Source: an uncultured Clostridia bacterium (lineage in GTDB: Bacteria > Bacillota > Clostridia > TANB77 > CAG-508). Taken from it: a DNA stretch of 64,000 bases. Position numbers and translations under genes: made by a program. Location of the stretch: NCBI GenBank assembly GCA_944393135.1, contig CALXZC010000001.1:75748-139747 (forward strand), in the 5' to 3' direction. How positions within the stretch are numbered: position 1 is the stretch's first letter; every line of letters starts with the position of its first letter. Positions 3,042 to 61,448 of this stretch are shown here, one piece after another. The notes under the pieces were generated by a model. The model made no database searches, had not been told where the DNA came from, and worked only from the letters and a program-made list of their open reading frames with translations.

Positions 3042-5273
3042 ATGTCAAGTGGAACAATTTCAGCAAGTGGTTCGTGGCATACAGGTCCTACATTGGCAGC
3101 TTCTGGATCTGTTACATTCACAAGACCAGATGAAGCCAGTACTACTATACAAATATCTGGTTCTTTAGGTAACTATCCTGTTCGCCCAGATGATCCGGAA
3201 TATGAATATCATCTAAGAGTTGGTTATTATATAACTATAGACGGACGTACTGTTTGTAGTGGTACTGTTTGTAGTTCTAGTGAAAATGGTAGTGGTAGTA
3301 CCTCTGTAAATGCTACTGCTTCTTCCGACAATAGTTATCCTCGAATTGAAATACATTATACTTGTGGGGAATCCCCTCAATGTACAAAAGGACATCCTGA
3401 TGAGGTTGTAGGTAGTGGATATATTAGTTTACCTTATAACCCATATAAAACACCTACCATAGGTTGTAGCACTTCTTATAATATTTCAATATTTGATCGA
3501 AGAAGGGAAATGTGGGTTGACGCCAATTATTCAGGTGATGATTCTCCTACAACTACATGGGTCGTAGTAAATGGTAATAGAGAAGATTGGAATATAGGAA
3601 ATAGTGGTGGAACTTATGGATTTATACCTAGTCAAAAAGGTGTGTCTGATGGTGTGTCATATACATTTCAAGCCTATAGACAACATAATTATGCTACAGA
3701 TAAAGTAGCTTCTACAAGTTACACATTATATACATATAGAACACCAATTATTAATAGTGTTAGTGTAGATAATCCTAGTTTTAGTGGATTTGGAAAAGTT
3801 AATTTAAGTTGGAGAACAAATGCCAGAAGATGGAGTACAAGTCCAACAGAGGAACCATTTAAAACATACATTAGATTTAATACATCAAGTCCTTTGGCAG
3901 AATGGTTTGAATGTTCAAATAATAATCCTACTGGACCTAATACAAGTAATGAAACTTCTTTACAGTCCGTACAAATAACAAAAGATATGATTGATACTTA
4001 TTTCACCGTAGCTGAAAGATGCCAAGAATCATATAGTACTACCGTACAAATGAAAAGAACAAATGTATCAAGTACTATTGAAGCTGAGAGTAATACATTT
4101 GCAATTACAATACAATTTGCCCCAAAATATGCTCCTAATCAAATAAATTATTGGGATTACAATTCTTCTGCAAGTAATAATAGAGGTAATAGTATAAGTC
4201 CTGGAACAATATGTTATCTAGATTCACATCCTAGGATAGTTATAGATTGGTCTATGCCAAATCAAATAGATAGAGGTGTAATAGACGGATATGAATTATA
4301 TATTTATTCAAGTAGTTCTTATACAACTCATAAAACATTTGATGTTCCTGTGGGAGGTATTGTTACAGATTTATATGGGCAGTATGTAGCAAATATAAGA
4401 AGTGATTTATATAGGGGACAAATGAATTATGTTGGGGTTAGGGCTTATTATATAAATCCATTAGGTGACAAAATGTACGGACCAGAGTTAAGAAAACAAT
4501 TTGTATTTCCACTTGGAAGATTATATACACCAAAAATATCATACCCTGTTAATAATTCAAGATGGCATAATAAAAATTTTAGAATATTATTTGAGTTACC
4601 AACAGATGATGATTATGATGTTTTAAGTAGTTATATTTCAAATGATACATATACATATAAAGAGATTGAATTAACTATTAATGGAACAGTATATAAATAT
4701 ACAACAGACTCTAATATATTCAGTATAAATAAAATGGGTTATAAGTATAGAGTTTGTGTAAATCCATCAATATTAAGTTCATTTCCTGATACAGATACAT
4801 ATAGAATTACAGTAAGGGTACAAAAAAATTATTTTATGAATATTTGGTCCGGCACAAGTAGTACTACGGTTGTATATAAGACTCCTGTTACAAGACAAAA
4901 TTTAGTACAATTTACACCAATATTGGCAACACATTATAAACACGTACAATCAAGTTCAATACGTTTATATAATACATACCCAATAAAGTCTTTACCAACT
5001 AATAATGTGGATCAGGATGTAGGAGATGTTATTTATGCCAAACATTATCAAGCTATATTTGATACAGTTTTAGCAATACAAGATGGAGTAAATACATGGG
5101 CCCGTTATGATTCGGGTAAAGATCGATGTAAATTTCAACAAAACATAGATGAGTTTTCAGGTTCAGATAAAGCAACTAACGATTTAATAACGGCTCAAGA
5201 TGATGAAAGACCAACAAGACAAGGAAGAAATTATTTTAATATTTTAGTAGATAGTATGAATAAGTTATATTAA
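3042..5273 (+). CDS. Ser/Thr/Gly-rich large protein, candidate receptor-binding/structural protein; 5' ~700 nt noticeably GC-richer than surroundings
   Basis: ORF 743 aa; RBS aaggaaaggag; lies between lysis/structural genes. Confidence 0.7.
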   Translation: MSSGTISASGSWHTGPTLAASGSVTFTRPDEASTTIQISGSLGNYPVRPDDPEYEYHLRVGYYITIDGRTVCSGTVCSSSENGSGSTSVNATASSDNSYPRIEIHYTCGESPQCTKGHPDEVVGSGYISLPYNPYKTPTIGCSTSYNISIFDRRREMWVDANYSGDDSPTTTWVVVNGNREDWNIGNSGGTYGFIPSQKGVSDGVSYTFQAYRQHNYATDKVASTSYTLYTYRTPIINSVSVDNPSFSGFGKVNLSWRTNARRWSTSPTEEPFKTYIRFNTSSPLAEWFECSNNNPTGPNTSNETSLQSVQITKDMIDTYFTVAERCQESYSTTVQMKRTNVSSTIEAESNTFAITIQFAPKYAPNQINYWDYNSSASNNRGNSISPGTICYLDSHPRIVIDWSMPNQIDRGVIDGYELYIYSSSSYTTHKTFDVPVGGIVTDLYGQYVANIRSDLYRGQMNYVGVRAYYINPLGDKMYGPELRKQFVFPLGRLYTPKISYPVNNSRWHNKNFRILFELPTDDDYDVLSSYISNDTYTYKEIELTINGTVYKYTTDSNIFSINKMGYKYRVCVNPSILSSFPDTDTYRITVRVQKNYFMNIWSGTSSTTVVYKTPVTRQNLVQFTPILATHYKHVQSSSIRLYNTYPIKSLPTNNVDQDVGDVIYAKHYQAIFDTVLAIQDGVNTWARYDSGKDRCKFQQNIDEFSGSDKATNDLITAQDDERPTRQGRNYFNILVDSMNKLY

Positions 5274-40578: not shown

Positions 40579-42033
40579 ATGGGAAAAGCAACTATTATAG
40601 AAGCACAAAATTCTAATACTGTTTATGAGCAAGGTAAAAGTAAAGGTACTTTAGGAAAACTTAAAGGTATTTTCGCTGATTATAAACACGGAACAAGAAA
40701 TAGTGATAGATTATATACAGAAGAACTTTGGGATAATAGAGTGTTTGGTTCTTCTGATGTTATGGAGGCATTACAAACAAAAACATTATTTGGAGAATTA
40801 GACCATCCTGAAGGAGATAGATGTGAAACACTTGCAAAAAATGCTGCGATTACAATTACTAAATTAGAGAAGAGACCAGATGAAGGAGTTATATATGGTG
40901 AAGCAGAAATATTAGATACACCTACTGGAAGAATTGTAAAAGCACTTGCAGATAGTGGAGCACAACTTGGTATAAGTTCAAGAGGTATGGGTGAAGAAAT
41001 ATATCAAGAAGGAAAAAATATTATCGACCCTGAAACCTATGATTTTATAACATTTGATGTTGTTGTAACACCAGCAAATACAAAAGCAAGAGTATCCTTA
41101 ACAGAAAGTAAACACTTAAATAAATTAACAGAAAGTGTAACACGTGAAATAAACGAAAGTGAAACTCAAAATCAATTAAACCAAATTAAATCTGTATTAC
41201 AAAATACTAATATAGAAAATAAAAATACTTTGTTAAAACAAGTAGAGAATAAACTACAAACATTAAATAAACCTGTTAATAATAAATTAACTGAGGCAAA
41301 TAAAACAATAGCTTTGAATTTATTAAAAAAGAGATTTACAGAACAGGCAACTACATTAGAACAAACAATAGAAGCAAGTAACCAACTTGCAAAAGAAAAT
41401 AAACAATTAATAGAAGAAAAACAGTTTTTAGATGAATCAAGAACAACAATAAAATCAAAATTAAAAGAAGCTAAAATACAAATAAATACTTTAAATAAAA
41501 ATATAGAAGATATGAAAACTTCTAATAAAAAAGCTATTAGTCAAAATACACAAGTATTACAAAAACAATTACAGATAGCTTTACAAAAAGCCGAAATGTT
41601 AGAAAGTGTTAATAAAGAATTACAAAAAAGTAATACTAATTTAACAGAAAATAATAAAAAATTAGATAAACAATTAAATAATATACAAGAAATTAATAAA
41701 CAACTAAGTAATGACTTAGATTATAATAATAAACTATTAATAGAAATGGATAATAAAAATAAATCTTTACAAAATAAAGTAAAAATATTACAAGAACAAA
41801 AACAAACAACACAAAATACAAATATAAAATTAACAGAAAATAAAAAATTACAAGAACAAAAAACAAAACAACTAGAAAATAAAGTTAAAGAATTAGAAGA
41901 TGAAGTAAATAGATTTTCAAAATTATCATTTAATCCTGTTATAAAAGCTACAAATATTGTAACAGAAAATTACGAAAATACTGAATATACACAGGACGAA
42001 ATTGATTTATTAAATACTTTAATTAATAAATAG
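40579..42033 (+). CDS. putative prohead protease-scaffold fusion (globular N-domain ~190 aa with His/Ser motifs + ~290-aa coiled coil), T4 gp21/gp22-like by position
   Basis: RBS aaggag; N-domain ELDHPEGD...GISSRGMG; C-terminal K/N/Q heptad coiled coil; immediately upstream of MCP. Confidence 0.5.
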   Translation: MGKATIIEAQNSNTVYEQGKSKGTLGKLKGIFADYKHGTRNSDRLYTEELWDNRVFGSSDVMEALQTKTLFGELDHPEGDRCETLAKNAAITITKLEKRPDEGVIYGEAEILDTPTGRIVKALADSGAQLGISSRGMGEEIYQEGKNIIDPETYDFITFDVVVTPANTKARVSLTESKHLNKLTESVTREINESETQNQLNQIKSVLQNTNIENKNTLLKQVENKLQTLNKPVNNKLTEANKTIALNLLKKRFTEQATTLEQTIEASNQLAKENKQLIEEKQFLDESRTTIKSKLKEAKIQINTLNKNIEDMKTSNKKAISQNTQVLQKQLQIALQKAEMLESVNKELQKSNTNLTENNKKLDKQLNNIQEINKQLSNDLDYNNKLLIEMDNKNKSLQNKVKILQEQKQTTQNTNIKLTENKKLQEQKTKQLENKVKELEDEVNRFSKLSFNPVIKATNIVTENYENTEYTQDEIDLLNTLINK

Positions 42034-42055
42034 TCTTAATTTTAAATTGCGTTAC

Positions 42056-42077
42056 GTAAAATATTATTGAAGTTAAG
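42056..42077 (+). promoter_or_regulatory. late-type motif GTAAAATATTATTGAAGTTAAG
   Basis: Upstream of major capsid gene. Confidence 0.4.
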
Positions 42078-42255
42078 TTTTTAATTTTAAATTACTTTGA
42101 AAGATATTTGGTAATTTGTTTAATATAAAGATTCTATAAAGATATTATGGACGGCTGAAGGAAACAGTTAGAAATTCCAAAAACTATAAAAATAAAATTT
42201 AAAAGAAAAGTATTAATTAAAAAAAAATAAAAAATAATAAGGAGTGAATTTAATA

Positions 42256-42557
42256 ATGGCAAAGGTTATAACAAAGGAATCTTTAAACAGACAAGTTGCT
42301 ACTAGCCCTATGGCTGCTAAATATGCTAAAAGAATTAATCTTTTAGAAACAGCTAGAAAAGTTGCAGGAGCACAACCAATGACAGCATATCAAAAACATT
42401 ATGTTGGTCAATTATTTGAAAATACACAAAAAGGAAATTTATATGAAGCATATACACAAGCTTCAAACGTAGGTAATTGGAGAAGAGATGCTATGAACAT
42501 AGTTTCAATAGCAGTTCAAAATACAATCCTAGACCAAATCGTTTCTATGCAAGCCAT
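42256..42557 (+). CDS. major capsid protein, exon 1 (T4 gp23-like); 3' boundary is a model
   Basis: ATG 42256 after aaggag; ORF runs to stop at 42574-76; P1-like pairing gccau/agtggc places U.G at 42557. Confidence 0.55.
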
Positions 42558-43798
42558 TAACGTTGAAGTGGCATAGTATAGTAATATACTATTCAAAACT
42601 CCGTGAACTGCTGGAAACTCCTAAAGCCTAAACAACGAAGCCTAAGTAACATAGTTTAGGATGATACAATGGACAATCAGCAACCGTTATAAAATAAGAG
42701 AGGCAAATAAAAATGAATAATAAACGACCTAAAACAGATTTAAATAAATTAAAAGATTTATATTTAAATACTAACTTAACAATAAAGGAAATTTGTAAAG
42801 AACTAGATGTAACATTTAGTACAGTAAAAAAGTGGATAAAAAGATTAGACTTACATAGAAGTGAGGAACTACAAAAACAAAGTTTTAAGAAAAAATATAT
42901 AACAAGAGAACAAAACTTATTAAATAAATATGGTGTAACAAATGTTTCTAAATTACCCCAAGTACAAGAAAAACAAAAACAACAAAGTTTAAAAATGTGG
43001 AAAAATAGAACATCACAAGAAAAAGAAGATTTATTTAATAAAGTAAATAATACTAAAATAAAACTGTATGGTAGTACAAAATATAATAATATAGAAAAAT
43101 GTCTACAAACAAAATTAAATAGATATGGCAGTTCTTCATATAATAATATGGAAAAAAATATACAGACAAGAATAAAAAATAGAACTTCTGGTAAATCTAA
43201 AGAAGAACAAGAATTAGAACAAGAATTAATAAATAAATATGGTAAAGAAAATGTACAAAAACAAGTAAGATTATCAAATAGAAGTGCTTTAAAATTTGAT
43301 TTTGTAATAAATAATACTTTATATATAGAACTAAATGGAGAATTTTGGCATAACTACAGACCGTTTAATCCAAATAATCCACAACATTTACAAGAATATT
43401 ATTCATTAAAAGAAAAGGGAAATGGTATCTATAAAGCAGTTGCAAAACATTGGAGATATAATGACCCTAGAAAATTAAAGTTTTGTATGGATAATAATAT
43501 AAATTACATAGTTTTATATTTTGATAAGTTACCTAATAATATAATGGATTTATTGGAAGAATATAAAGAAGGACAAATAATATTAACATACAAAAATAAT
43601 AAATTAACGGTTCAACGACTATCGAAAGCATAAATTAAGAGAAAAACTTAATTGAAGAAGTGAGTAGAGTACAATTCAAGTGAATTGGAAGTGCGGAGAT
43701 TCCTATAAAGGATAAAACAATATAGGAATATGATATAGTCTAATCTATATAGAAATATATAGAAAATAAGTGGAAACGACTTATTTGTAATATTAATG
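42558..43798 (+). mobile_element. group I intron (td-like, subgroup IA) interrupting major capsid gene, with internal homing-endonuclease ORF
   Basis: R element GGTTCAACGACTATCG at 43609-24 and S element ATGATATAGTCTAATC at ~43736-51 (10-mers identical to td); P8 hairpin cctata...tatagg; ends in G before exon 2. Confidence 0.7.
42713..43633 (+). CDS. intron-encoded homing endonuclease: N-terminal K[YL]G DNA-binding repeats + C-terminal Vsr-like nuclease (FDFVI...YIELNGEFWH)
   Basis: ORF 306 aa with RBS agagagg; 3' end overlaps intron P7 (R element). Confidence 0.65.
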   Translation: MNNKRPKTDLNKLKDLYLNTNLTIKEICKELDVTFSTVKKWIKRLDLHRSEELQKQSFKKKYITREQNLLNKYGVTNVSKLPQVQEKQKQQSLKMWKNRTSQEKEDLFNKVNNTKIKLYGSTKYNNIEKCLQTKLNRYGSSSYNNMEKNIQTRIKNRTSGKSKEEQELEQELINKYGKENVQKQVRLSNRSALKFDFVINNTLYIELNGEFWHNYRPFNPNNPQHLQEYYSLKEKGNGIYKAVAKHWRYNDPRKLKFCMDNNINYIVLYFDKLPNNIMDLLEEYKEGQIILTYKNNKLTVQRLSKA

Positions 43799-44888
43799 GA
43801 CAACGGCAGCAGAACTATTACCAATTCTAGAATTTAAATATGGAACAGACAAAGGTGAAACAAAAGCCGGAGATGTTGTATTAGATTCAACAGGATATGG
43901 TAAAACAGATAAATTCTATGATTCAAACATAGTAAATAATCAAGCAATCGGAGCTGGAGTAAAAACATACTTAGCACCATTTACACCAATTACAGCTGGA
44001 ACAGTTAAAGTTGTAAAAGCTGACGGAACAGTTGTAACAGATGATGGACAAGGTGCATTAAGTGATGGAGGTAGAGTAGATTATGCAACAGGTGAAGTTA
44101 CATTAAATGCTGCTGCAGCAGAAGGAGATACAATCTCTTATACATATAATAACTCACAAATACCAAACTACTTATATCCAGAATTAGATGGACATAATAA
44201 ACAACAAGTTGGAGACGTTACATTAGGAATTAAACCAGTTCTTATTGAAGCTGAAGAACACAAAATCAGAGCTGTATATGGATTAACAGCAGCTTACAGA
44301 ATCAATAAAGAATACAATGTAAATCTTCCACTTGAATTTGAAAAACAAGTTGCAAATGAAATGAACAAAGAGCAAGAAAGACTTGTTATGAACGATATAT
44401 TCACACAAGCAGCTGGTGGAAATGCTATCGTATGGTCAGCAACACCACGTCCAGGTGTAAGTGATGCAGAACACGTTGAAAGTTTACCAATTAAAATAAA
44501 CTTAGCAGCTTCTGAAATTTACACAAGAACAGGTGGTAACTTACAACCAAACTTTATCGTTGCAGGTTCAAACGTAGTTGCTTACTTAGCAAAAACAAAG
44601 AACTTCGAAGCAAACGAAGCACCAAAAAACGGAGGTTCTTTCTTAGCTGGTAGATTAGGAACATTAGATGTTTACCAAACACCAGGTATTGGAACTAACG
44701 ACTTCTTCCTAGGTGGAATTGGAAATGACTACTGGCAAGCTGGATATGTTGTTGGAAACTATATGCCAATTACATATACCCAACCAGTAACACTAGCAGA
44801 TTTCACAACACAATCAGGATGGGTTTCAATTTATGGTAGAAAAATGGTTAACCCACAACTATACCTAAGAGGAAGAATCACAGTTTAG
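43799..44888 (+). CDS. major capsid protein, exon 2 (T4 gp23-like C-terminal region)
   Basis: ~560 nt of strongly biased coding sequence in-frame upstream of first ATG (44361) with no possible start; NFIVAGSNVVAYLA and FLAGRLG...YVVGNYMP segments resemble gp23 family. Confidence 0.6.
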
Positions 44889-44940
44889 TCCTACAGACAA
44901 CAGACTTCTAAAGAAGTTTTTCATAAATTTTTCTCTTCGA

Positions 44941-44971
44941 ACAGGTACATTTCTGTACCTGTTTTTATTTT
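44941..44971 (+). terminator. rho-independent terminator after capsid gene
   Basis: acaggtaca-tttc-tgtacctgt 9-bp stem + tttttatttt. Confidence 0.8.
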
Positions 44972-45033
44972 GACTTTTTCCGGTTGGGTCTTGTATTTTG
45001 GTAATAAAATATTTAATTTTTGTAAAAAATACC

Positions 45034-45082: not shown

Positions 45083-46762
45083 ATGAAAACAAATATATGT
45101 AAAAATTGTGGAAAAGAATTTAATTTAAATAAAGTGCAGGAATTAAATTATACTAAATACAATAAGCTAGTACAGTATTGTAATGAAGAATGTGGAAAAG
45201 AATTAATAAAACAATATTTAGAAACTACAAATTTAAAAAGAGAGTTAATTGCAAAAGAGTTAGGTATTAGTATAACAACATATGAAACACTTGCTAAAAA
45301 ATATAATTTAAAAAGAACAAAAGAACAAATTGCCAGATTAAAAGTACAAAATATGCAAACTACTATGCAAGAAAAATATGGTATAACAAATGCAATGGAA
45401 AAGAAAGAATTTAGACAAGCAATTAGTAATACTTATAGTAATCAAACAAAAGAAGAAAAACAAGAAAAAGTAAAAAGAATTAAACAAACAAAATTAGAAA
45501 AATATGGTGATGAGAATTACCATAATATAGAACAAGCCAAACAAACAATGCAAGAAAAATATGGAGTACAAATAGGATACCAAACAGAAAAATCTGTACA
45601 AAATAGAATTAAAAGTTCTATGGAGAAATACGGTGTAGACAATCCATTTAAATCCAGTGAAGTTCATAAATTAGCTAGACAAAGAATGAAAGAAAAATAT
45701 GGTGTAGAATATGGTTATAAAAGTAAAATTATTAGAAATAAAATTAATAAGTCAATAAAAGAAAAATATGGAGTAGACAATATAATGCACAGTTTTAAAT
45801 ATCAACGAAAAGTTAAACAAACTATGTTTGATAAATATAAAGTAACAAGTGGATTTTTAACACCTAATGCTATAAAATCTCATAAACAAGGTACTATATC
45901 AAAAATTAATAAGAAATGTGCTGAAGAGTTAAAACAAATTACCAATAAGCAAATTAAATTAGAAAAACCTATTTTCAAATATATTTATGATATACAATTA
46001 GGGGAGAATATTTTAATTGACATTAATCCAACTATATCACATAATGTTTATATAAGTTATCCATATTTATTAAAAGTTGTTAAGGATAATATACCTGTAT
46101 CTAAAGAATATCATTTAGATAGATTAAAAATAGCTGTAGAAAATGGTTATGATTTAATTAGTGTATTTGATTGGGATGATTGGGAAAAAATTAAATATTT
46201 ATTACAAGATAAAGAAACATTATATGCAAGAAAACTGGAAATTAAAGAAGTAGATAAAAAAGAATGTAATGAATTTTTAAATAATTATCATTTACAAAAT
46301 ACTTGTAACGGACAAGAAATTAGATTAGGACTATACAAGGATAACGAATTAATAGAAATAATGACATTTGGAAAACCAAGGTATAATAAAAATTATGAAT
46401 GGGAATTATTAAGACTTTGTACTAAACCGGAATATAAAGTAGTTGGTGGAGCTGAAAAATTATTTAAACATTTTATTAAATTAGTTAATCCTAAATCTAT
46501 TATATCTTATTGTGATAATTCTAAATTTAGTGGAGAAGTGTATACTAGATTAGGATTTACACAAAAAGGAAAACCAAGTCCTTCTTTACATTGGAGTAAA
46601 GGTAGTGAACATATAACAGATAATTTGTTAAGACAAAGAGGATTTGACCAGTTATTTAATACTAATTATGGTAAGGGTACAAGTAACGAAGAATTAATGA
46701 TAGAACACGGTTGGTTACCTATATATGATTGTGGACAAATGACTTTTATATGGCATAAATAA
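45083..46762 (+). CDS. free-standing homing-endonuclease-like protein: CxxC..CxxC zinc finger, 7 tandem ~22-aa EKYGV repeats, Vsr/DUF559-like nuclease-like segment, and extra C-terminal GNAT-like domain
   Basis: ORF 559 aa; RBS ggaggt; repeats shared with intron HEG at 42713. Confidence 0.6.
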   Translation: MKTNICKNCGKEFNLNKVQELNYTKYNKLVQYCNEECGKELIKQYLETTNLKRELIAKELGISITTYETLAKKYNLKRTKEQIARLKVQNMQTTMQEKYGITNAMEKKEFRQAISNTYSNQTKEEKQEKVKRIKQTKLEKYGDENYHNIEQAKQTMQEKYGVQIGYQTEKSVQNRIKSSMEKYGVDNPFKSSEVHKLARQRMKEKYGVEYGYKSKIIRNKINKSIKEKYGVDNIMHSFKYQRKVKQTMFDKYKVTSGFLTPNAIKSHKQGTISKINKKCAEELKQITNKQIKLEKPIFKYIYDIQLGENILIDINPTISHNVYISYPYLLKVVKDNIPVSKEYHLDRLKIAVENGYDLISVFDWDDWEKIKYLLQDKETLYARKLEIKEVDKKECNEFLNNYHLQNTCNGQEIRLGLYKDNELIEIMTFGKPRYNKNYEWELLRLCTKPEYKVVGGAEKLFKHFIKLVNPKSIISYCDNSKFSGEVYTRLGFTQKGKPSPSLHWSKGSEHITDNLLRQRGFDQLFNTNYGKGTSNEELMIEHGWLPIYDCGQMTFIWHK

Positions 46763-61092: not shown

Positions 61093-61167
61093 GCTCCTTT
61101 GGTGTAATTGGTAGCATACCAGTCTCCAAAACTGTTGGTTGAGGTTCAAATCCTTGAGGGAGTGCCA
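61093..61167 (+). tRNA. tRNA-Trp (anticodon CCA), CCA-encoded
   Basis: Hand-folded cloverleaf: acceptor gctcctt/agggagt (2 G.U), anticodon loop cuCCAaa with U33, T-loop GGTTCAAATCC. Confidence 0.7.
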
Positions 61168-61359: not shown

Positions 61360-61448
61360 GGGTATGTGGCGGAACTGGTAGACGCACAGGACTTAAAATC
61401 CTGTATCTGAAATACGGTGTAAGGGTTCAAGTCCCTTCATACCCACCA
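61360..61448 (+). tRNA. tRNA-Leu (anticodon UAA), class II long variable arm, CCA-encoded
   Basis: Acceptor gggtatg/cataccc perfect; anticodon stem cagga/tcctg, loop cuUAAaa; T-arm aaggg-ttcaagt-ccctt. Confidence 0.8.

Follow-up and report, generated by a model that had tools for sequence, protein, structure and literature searches.

Genes and features at the capsid locus

We analyzed a 64,000-nucleotide (nt) stretch of contig CALXZC010000001.1 (assembly GCA_944393135.1), referred to here as the window, and focus on a locus at positions 42256 to 44888 in which a major capsid gene of the T4 gp23 family is interrupted by an insert that is very probably a group I intron capable of self-splicing and that carries a putative homing endonuclease gene. 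The gene 5' of the capsid gene (40579-42033) encodes an S77 prohead protease, the same order as in T4. The parts of the capsid gene and of the insert are listed below; ORF stands for open reading frame, aa for amino acids, and L001 is a metagenomic phage contig with an uninterrupted capsid gene.

42239..42244, + strand: AAGGAG, a Shine-Dalgarno sequence 11 nt 5' of the capsid gene's ATG 42256, read from the sequence
42256..42557, + strand: capsid exon 1, of 100 codons and 2 nt, with the 3' end ...CAA GCC AU; colinear with L001 1244-1545
42558..43798, + strand: predicted group I intron, 1241 nt, UAACG...UUAAUG, terminal G at 43798; absent in L001, with covariation and a profile match
42574..42576, + strand: in-frame stop TAG, 17 nt into the intron, ending exon 1 translation on unspliced RNA
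42698..42703, + strand: GAGAGG, a Shine-Dalgarno sequence 9 nt 5' of the ATG of the endonuclease ORF, read from the sequence
42713..43633, + strand: putative homing endonuclease ORF, 306 aa, with a helix-turn-helix (HTH) at residues ~16-57, KYG repeats (DUF7487-like) at ~66-160 and a Vsr-fold EDxHD nuclease domain at ~160-306
43799..44888, + strand: capsid exon 2, 1 nt plus 362 codons and a stop; Pfam Gp23; colinear with L001
44939..44974, + strand: terminator-like hairpin and T-run, 3' of the capsid gene

The ORF that opens at ATG 42256 runs into the TAG at 42574-42576, and relatives have an in-frame stop at the same point or earlier. The exon 2 frame (ORF 44361-44888) is open on translation from 43797 to 44888, and contains no ATG, GTG or TTG upstream of 44361 back to 43797 (188 codons); no ribosome-binding site was found for exon 2. 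When 42557 is joined to 43799, the two frames merge into a 463-aa product. Exon 2 alone matches Pfam Gp23 (PF07068; E 5.7e-18, 65.9 bits), and the spliced product does so at 84.6 bits (cut-off 24.4) over profile positions 1-352 of 376, the match being unbroken across the junction at residue 101. The spliced product also matches T4 gp23 itself (BLASTP 3e-7), and its closest intron-less homologue (P0001) begins MAKVITK, as does the window ORF from ATG 42256. Thus, positions 42256-42557 and 43799-44888 together encode a 463-aa major capsid protein of the T4 gp23 family, and both the split gene and the capsid identity put forward in an initial annotation of this DNA stand. No terminator was found on the + strand inside the intron, and the capsid gene is most likely transcribed as one piece, exon 1 through to the terminator at 44939.

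The insertion interrupts the Met codon in VSMQAM, a sequence that aligns with GVQPM (Met117) of T4 gp23; the motif at the insertion site is the conserved VQ(P/A)M, and the peptide spanning the splice junction would be ...VSMQAM-TTAAELLPILEFK. Conserved protein motifs are typical targets of homing endonucleases.

An uninterrupted allele fixes the intron boundaries

A search of 5.8 billion proteins recovered about 75 uninterrupted capsid homologues of 446-493 aa. The closest of these, P0001 (463 aa), is 99% identical to the spliced product over 100% of its length, and the alignment (A1) has no gap at the predicted junction. In L001, the metagenomic phage contig that encodes P0001, the insert is absent and 5.2 kb of flanking genome matches the window at 96.9% identity; the uninterrupted gene differs from the spliced model by 20 mismatches and 0 indels over 1392 nt (98.6% DNA identity). 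A single junction fits the intron-less DNA (...GCCAU / UAACG...UUAAUG / GACAAC(G)...): the exons read ...CAAGCCAU joined to GACAACGG, and the corresponding stretch of L001 reads ...TCTATGCAAGCTATGACAACAGCTGCAGAA... The L001 allele, uninterrupted and without indels, therefore fixes the intron at 42558-43798, exactly the sites that had been predicted from a U-G pair at 42557-42568 in P1 and a terminal G at 43798. Exon 1 ends in U (42557) and the intron in G (43798), as it does in 10 of 10 loci with mapped splice sites; group I introns have two boundary hallmarks, a U before the 5' splice site and a G at the 3' end.

Most exon differences from L001 are synonymous (12 of 18 changed codons). Five of the 20 fall within 35 nt of the junction (P ~0.003, post hoc), a cluster that resembles a co-conversion tract and is at most suggestive of one. 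Megablast of 42000-45000 against GenBank phages returned no match; there is, therefore, no close cultured relative.

The insert has a conserved and covarying group I fold

Sixteen further contigs, drawn from several studies, carry the same intron at this capsid position, with a homologous ORF of 303-306 aa. We aligned 8 distinct ORF-deleted intron sequences from the window and these same-site copies (alignment A2) and scored a structure of 81 pairs in 13 helices (P1, P2, P3, P4, P5, P5a, P6, P7, P7.1, P7.2, P8, P9, and P9.1). The elements are as follows, with compensatory counts referring to this alignment and MFE denoting minimum free energy.

42553..42572, + strand: P1, exon GCCAU 42553-42557 with internal guide GUGGC 42568-42572; 2 of 5 pairs compensatory (C-G to U-A, G-C to C-G)
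42561..42565, + strand: P10 guide strand CGUUG, paired to CAACG of exon 2 at 43801-43805; read from the sequence
42573..42592, + strand: P2 hairpin (AUAGUAUA / UAUACUAU); 2 compensatory pairs, recovered by MFE folding
42599..42603, + strand: P3 5' strand CUCCG, pairing with CGGAG 43694-43698; 3 of 5 pairs compensatory, 100% of cells paired
42609..42682, + strand: P4-P5-P5a domain, with P4 42609-14/42677-82, P5 42618-21/42671-74 and P5a 42627-33/42654-60
42684..42689, + strand: P6 5' strand CCGUUA, pairing with UAACGG 43605-43610; the endonuclease ORF lies in the P6 loop
43617..43622, + strand: P7 5' strand GACUAU (in the R element), pairing with AUAGUC 43735-43740 (S element); invariant in 8 copies
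43633..43687, + strand: P7.1 (43633-39/43647-53, 4 of 7 pairs compensatory) and P7.2 (43672-77/43682-87, 6 of 6 compensatory)
43700..43728, + strand: P8 hairpin (UUCCUAUA / UAUAGGAA), between the R and S elements; 3 of 8 pairs compensatory
43745..43784, + strand: P9 (43745-51/43756-62, 2 compensatory) and P9.1 (43766-71/43779-84, 1 compensatory)

Across the 8 copies, 97.4% of pair cells form standard pairs, and double-sided compensatory changes occur in 28 of the 81 pairs, compared to 0-3 in slid controls and 13.6 +/- 2.0 in shuffles. At least one compensatory pair is found in 11 of the 13 helices, P4 and P7 being invariant. P5a has compensatory changes in 4 of its 7 pairs, and P6 in 1 of 6 (C-G to U-A), where the change on the ORF side is a synonymous Thr codon. 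The pairing across the 5' splice site (U42557-G42568) is U-G in 8 of 8 sequences, and the rest of P1 covaries with the exon: GCCAU/GUGGC here is matched by GCUAU/GUAGC and CCUAU/GUAGG in relatives. The P10 pairing is likewise kept with other bases, as GUA/UAC in L002, GCA/UGC in L131 and GUAC/GUAC in L138 (relatives of the window locus). P3 and P7 form a pseudoknot, and MFE folding of the mini-intron independently recovered all the non-pseudoknotted helices (z = -4.1). The P4 sequence is identical to that in the Rfam consensus of related introns.

The 306-aa ORF, the R and S elements, and the P8 hairpin between them were all present as initially annotated. The core sequences CAACGACTATC (43613-43623) and GATATAGTCT (43732-43741) are each matched exactly at one place in the 64-kb window, and we rejected further introns of the same type in the window on the grounds that each core 10-mer is found exactly once. 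Helices P7.1 and P7.2 are extra elements typical of subgroup IA introns such as td. With these two helices between P7 and P3', and with an ORF in the P6 loop, the intron has an IA/td-like architecture; splicing competence with boundaries at 42558-43798 is highly probable.

A different view would be that the insert is a mobile cassette that does not splice, leaving the capsid gene as a pseudogene in a defective phage or as two separate capsid fragments. Such a view could appeal to the stop codon 17 nt past the junction, to gene callers giving two or three separate ORFs, and to the lack of a match in Rfam (see below). We consider it very improbable: exon 2 has no start codon for 188 codons and no ribosome-binding site, the 28 compensatory pairs are explained only by selection on the RNA fold, 12 of the 18 codons changed relative to the intron-less allele are synonymous, and the same arrangement is kept in many diverged phages. 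Removal of the interruption at the level of protein or translation (an intein, ribosomal bypass or frameshift) is less probable still, to the point of being negligible. A 1-nt frame break does recur at another place in the capsid gene of relatives, which makes unconventional decoding in this gene family conceivable; the insert, in contrast, carries capsid-frame stop codons together with an ORF that has its own start in a different context, Pfam finds no intein blocks in it, and the evidence from RNA structure points specifically to group I. At 1241 nt, moreover, it is far longer than any known bypass. We thus favor a group I intron that is removed from the capsid RNA.

The intron encodes a putative EDxHD-type homing endonuclease

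The N-terminal region of the 306-aa intron ORF matches Pfam HTH_28 (28.0, cut-off 25) and HTH_23 (26.0, cut-off 24.6), and its KYG repeats match DUF7487 weakly (20.1 bits, cut-off 27). The AlphaFold model of the product has a mean predicted local distance difference test (pLDDT) score of 83, and fold comparison with this model places the C-terminal nuclease domain in the Vsr fold. A search of 1.84 billion representative proteins found 698 relatives of this domain, which is nearly always C-terminal in proteins of 200-400 aa. The ORF alignment included 17 protein clusters at 53-100% identity plus more distant relatives. E165, D196, H213, and D251 are the sole invariant columns in 27 diverse relatives and give the pattern E-D-x-H-D, with N208 at x.

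The E-D-x-H-D signature defines the family of I-Bth0305I (PMC3239194). Alignment with this enzyme (gp29 of phage 0305phi8-36) is colinear from the HTH to FDFVINNTLYIELNGEFWHN / VDFYLGKKLAIEVNGVYWHS and places D196, N208, and H213 opposite D196, N208, and H213 of I-Bth0305I; the equivalence of E165 and D251 is inferred from the alignment and the local context D-x-R-K-L. Direct comparison of the two proteins gave a BLASTP value of 8e-6 (single comparison) and an hhalign probability of 69.6% (E 4e-5, 39 columns). The Vsr-like, I-Bth0305I-type assignment made in the initial annotation is supported by the modeled fold and the motif, and the intron ORF is probably an EDxHD-type homing endonuclease. 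Fold and motif place its family, of ~700 clusters at 50% identity and with a nuclease domain unseen by Pfam, PHROGs, and NCBIfam, among the little-studied EDxHD/Vsr-like homing endonucleases.

All 8 of the ORFs examined are intact, with ratios of nonsynonymous to synonymous substitution (dN/dS) of 0.11-0.50, which shows purifying selection on the ORF at the sequence level. Its last 29 nt including the stop (encoding LTVQRLSKA) overlap P6 3', J6/7, and P7 5', and conservation of the C-terminal peptide VQRLSK follows from that of the ribozyme. A conserved promoter of the T4 late type before the ORF was considered and rejected, since the candidate sequence TATAAAATA at 42688-42696 is not conserved in relatives.

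Relatives of the endonuclease were also detected by tblastn at ~30% identity in 5-6 places per genome in the Lak megaphages of Prevotella (MK250015-MK250029), and, by the same method, in Vibrio phages (K469 etc.), where they are annotated as 'homing endonuclease'. The Lak relatives, together with a match of the intron core in Lak-A2, hint at many unannotated introns in Lak phages, and also that the window may come from the gut or rumen.

Evidence against the interpretation, and the silence of Rfam

Several observations count against a splicing intron with an EDxHD endonuclease. P4 and P7 show no variation, so that covariation neither supports nor contradicts them, and P5 is weak, with 81% of cells paired. 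Splicing activity is predicted from the boundaries, the fold, and homology. Translation to the end of the ORF must unfold the catalytic core and should therefore compete with folding of the ribozyme. The direct sequence link between the ORF product and I-Bth0305I is short (39 columns in hhalign, and a BLASTP value from a single comparison), the nuclease domain is not recognized in Pfam, PHROGs, or NCBIfam, and searches of Protein Data Bank (PDB) sequences with the single sequence, two profiles, and the C-terminal domain alone gave no meaningful match. Finally, Rfam gave no group I (RF00028) match, either for the whole window at the gathering threshold or for 42400-44000 at E <= 10.

For the last point we used a control. 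At least 120 IMG/VR stretches contain the pattern GTTCAACGACTATCG-N(90-120)-GATATAGTCT, and in 12 of these pattern loci RF00028 scores 33 ORF-less introns at 50-108 bits. The same scan, at the gathering threshold, left the T4 td and nrdB introns (L124, NC_000866 134000-150000) and the homologous capsid intron of L002 unreported: the RF00028 model is unable to bridge an ORF of 0.3-0.9 kb. Because the T4 td and nrdB control was also missed, we do not count the silence of Rfam in the window as evidence against the intron, although it leaves the case one positive short. The initial annotation had named an Rfam/Infernal scan as a check, with the lack of a covariance-model match to be read as refutation; such a match is formally lacking, and the yardstick itself is invalid, given that it would also discard T4 td and nrdB. 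When the ORF was deleted, the window intron matched a hidden Markov model (HMM) of 32 Rfam-validated introns nearly end to end (nhmmer E 1.3e-46), a result reached by 0 of 200 shuffles.

Proposed mechanism and mobility

The best explanation, which we hold with high confidence, is a self-splicing mobile group I intron with an EDxHD endonuclease in a gp23-family capsid gene. It brings together the exact boundaries, the conserved and covarying fold, homology to validated introns, the presence/absence polymorphism, and the nuclease fold and motif. The ribozyme would fold in the capsid transcript from P1 to P9.1 with the P3/P7 pseudoknot. An external guanosine would then attack after U42557, which the guide GUGGC keeps in P1; exon 1, once released, would in turn attack after the terminal G43798, with P10 aligning exon 2. 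The outcome would be the removal of 42558-43798 and an mRNA for the 463-aa capsid protein. Ribosomes on unspliced RNA would halt at UAG 42574, and the endonuclease would be translated from its own ribosome-binding site (GAGAGG 42698-42703). Its N-terminal HTH and helical KYG repeats are expected to bind DNA. In a mixed infection, the enzyme would be expected to cut the intron-less capsid allele near the insertion site, and recombinational repair would copy the intron and short exon flanks into the cut allele.

Splicing activity, the activity and target of the endonuclease, and homing itself are the parts of this scheme that we infer. Homing is proposed because intron presence and absence differ cleanly between genomes 97% identical, because the intron is sporadic among capsid homologues, and because exon differences cluster at the junction. 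The first two of these observations speak against a reading in which the intron splices and is vertically inherited, its ORF product being no longer a homing endonuclease (maturase-like, DNA-binding or a relic). The ORF product's activity is predicted from sequence and model and its nuclease domain is invisible to curated family libraries, both of which leave room for this reading, and the co-evolution of the P1 and P10 guides with lineage-specific exon variants suggests some vertical residence. All four invariant EDxHD positions are, on the other hand, kept in the window protein and in 27 diverse relatives, and the ORFs are intact, at dN/dS 0.11-0.50. We therefore regard loss of the nuclease function as improbable and retain homing by an active endonuclease as the working scheme.

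The overlap of the ORF stop with P6, J6/7, and P7 could make endonuclease translation and capsid splicing mutually exclusive. If so, this exclusivity would time endonuclease expression against capsid production. By analogy with a published case in phage PhiPA3 (see the last section), the endonuclease might also serve as a weapon in competition between phages, cutting the capsid gene of near-identical phages that lack the intron; we consider both ideas doubtful. If the latter is true, production of rival virions would be blocked, or co-conversion of flanking capsid sequence forced. Such phages are found together in nature: the intron-less L001, at 97% identity, is from the same series of samples.

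Neighboring genes and other observations

Directly 3' of the capsid gene, an ORF at 45083-46762 (+ strand, 559 aa) resembles a free-standing homing endonuclease gene. It shares homology with the N-terminal half of the intron endonuclease over its own N-terminal HTH and KYG/DUF7487 repeats (BLASTP 2e-14), and its C-terminal domain differs, matching PHROG 3339 'homing endonuclease' (E 2e-68) with a weak XF1762/GNAT-like signal. From the sequences, this suggests that one DNA-binding module has been shuffled between two nuclease types. The 559-aa ORF is present irrespective of the intron (L001, L126, L131), and its position parallels that of segD, just after gene 23 in T4.

The prohead protease ORF at 40579-42033 (+ strand) encodes 484 aa, of which the S77 domain covers residues 27-176. 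The remaining ~300 residues are rich in Q, N, K, and E and coiled-coil-looking, and are possibly a fused scaffolding domain; in L002 and L136, a separate ORF of ~380-405 aa lies between the protease and capsid genes. Further away, two tRNA genes were found at 61093-61164 and 61360-61445 (+ strand; Rfam 54.5 and 62.9 bits), the second with a long variable arm.

In six 90%-identity clusters of capsid genes (P0083-P0088), the ORF is broken at ...WSSTPRP/GVSDAEH. We considered a second intron site in these relatives ending ...TPRP and rejected it, as the DNA of the one locus read has a single extra C and no room for an intron. In this locus, L136 (4955-4975; L137 is identical), the extra C reads CCA-C-GGAGTA, and the remainder of the capsid is encoded in the +1 frame as far as its usual end. 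This break reflects either an assembly error that recurs or a genuine frameshift or pseudogene, and is not found in the window.

Significance

Production of the most abundant virion protein would depend here on efficient splicing by a ribozyme. Gene callers split the capsid gene into ORFs of 106, 306, and 175-353 aa in every intron-bearing contig examined, and capsid proteins are therefore mis-annotated across a whole uncultivated phage lineage (contigs of 165-210 kb; ~26% G+C in the window). More generally, group I introns that carry an ORF are systematically missed by covariance-model scans of raw phage genomes. Since the standard Rfam scan misses such introns, T4 td included, they are probably under-counted in metagenomic phages. 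The locus is thus of practical use for annotation and as a demonstration that such introns escape standard covariance-model scans, and the intron-plus and intron-minus alleles in 97%-identical genomes are a natural system for homing or interference competition.

Comparison with known systems

Homing endonucleases carried by group I introns are a classical feature of phages. The element described here is of a known intron class, with an endonuclease of a known but rarely identified family in a category of host gene that has precedent, and its novelty is modest.

The closest textbook parallel is the T4 td intron (subgroup IA2, with I-TevI). As the initial annotation noted, the P7 strands (AACGACUAUC / GAUAUAGUCU) are identical to those of td, and both 10-mers are present, 60 nt apart, in the T4 reference genome (NC_000866). 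The two introns also share P7.1 and P7.2 between P7 and P3', the GAGUAG(A/G)GU junction motif, an ORF looped from P6, the U at the end of the 5' exon, the G at the end of the intron, and insertion in a conserved motif of a phage protein gene. They differ in the host gene (capsid here, thymidylate synthase in T4), in the endonuclease (Vsr-fold EDxHD here, GIY-YIG in T4), in the spacing of R and S (~110 nt here, 60 nt in td), and in that the last 29 nt of the ORF and its stop run here into P6 3', J6/7, and P7 5'. The label td-like holds for the P7 10-mers but is not specific: the core is found in at least 120 IMG/VR stretches and lies near the Rfam consensus. The window core is, in fact, nearer to many introns of gut and Firmicutes phages than to td itself, and is shared with introns of PBS1/AR9, Twort-like Staphylococcus phages, and Lak phages (Lak-A2).

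For the endonuclease, the reference is the EDxHD enzyme I-Bth0305I, from an intron in the recA/UvsX gene of Bacillus phage 0305phi8-36 (PMC3239194; PDB 3R3P). Only ~20% of residues are identical, with no sequence match at the level of the libraries. In place of the NUMOD motifs of I-Bth0305I, the window protein carries KYG/DUF7487 repeats, and it has an insertion of ~29 residues between H and the last D. The ORF of I-Bth0305I interrupts P5, whereas the ORF in the window lies in P6, and the target gene differs. In PhiPA3, the intron endonuclease gp210 was shown to damage a co-infecting relative without the intron (PMC11620839). In both systems, a large phage carries an endonuclease that is encoded by an intron within an essential late-function gene; the PhiPA3 enzyme is an HNH nickase directed against a virion RNA polymerase gene, and competition is proposed here by analogy.

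The initial annotation called a self-splicing intron in a capsid gene uncommon, which is an overstatement: one is published for mycobacteriophage LittleE and another is annotated in Bacillus phage SP-15. Splicing of the LittleE gp13 capsid intron was demonstrated by reverse transcription PCR (RT-PCR) and N-terminal sequencing (PMC3706429). That gene, too, is a major capsid gene interrupted by an intron with an endonuclease, but the capsid gene is of the HK97 type, and intron and endonuclease are unrelated to those of the window. The gp23-like capsid gene of SP-15 (KT624200) is annotated as a two-part join and has the same two P7 10-mers; its intron lies ~165 codons further downstream, with a T7 endonuclease I-like ORF 3' of P7 5' and not in P6. 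In this locus (L125, KT624200 23973-29484), AACGACTATC and GATATAGTCT are 916 nt apart with the T7 endonuclease I-like ORF between them, and the SP-15 intron is, judged by its sequence, the same ribozyme class with a different endonuclease inserted. A third case is L147 (IMGVR_UViG_3300045988_082442, ~3214-3565), whose capsid is 52% identical and which has an ORF-less insertion of ~350 nt lying ~27 codons upstream of the window site. This insertion matches the group I profile at E 1.4e-42 and was not reported by Rfam at the gathering threshold. In the phages examined, introns thus occur in gp23-type capsid genes at no fewer than three sites: that of the window, that of L147, and the distant one of SP-15.

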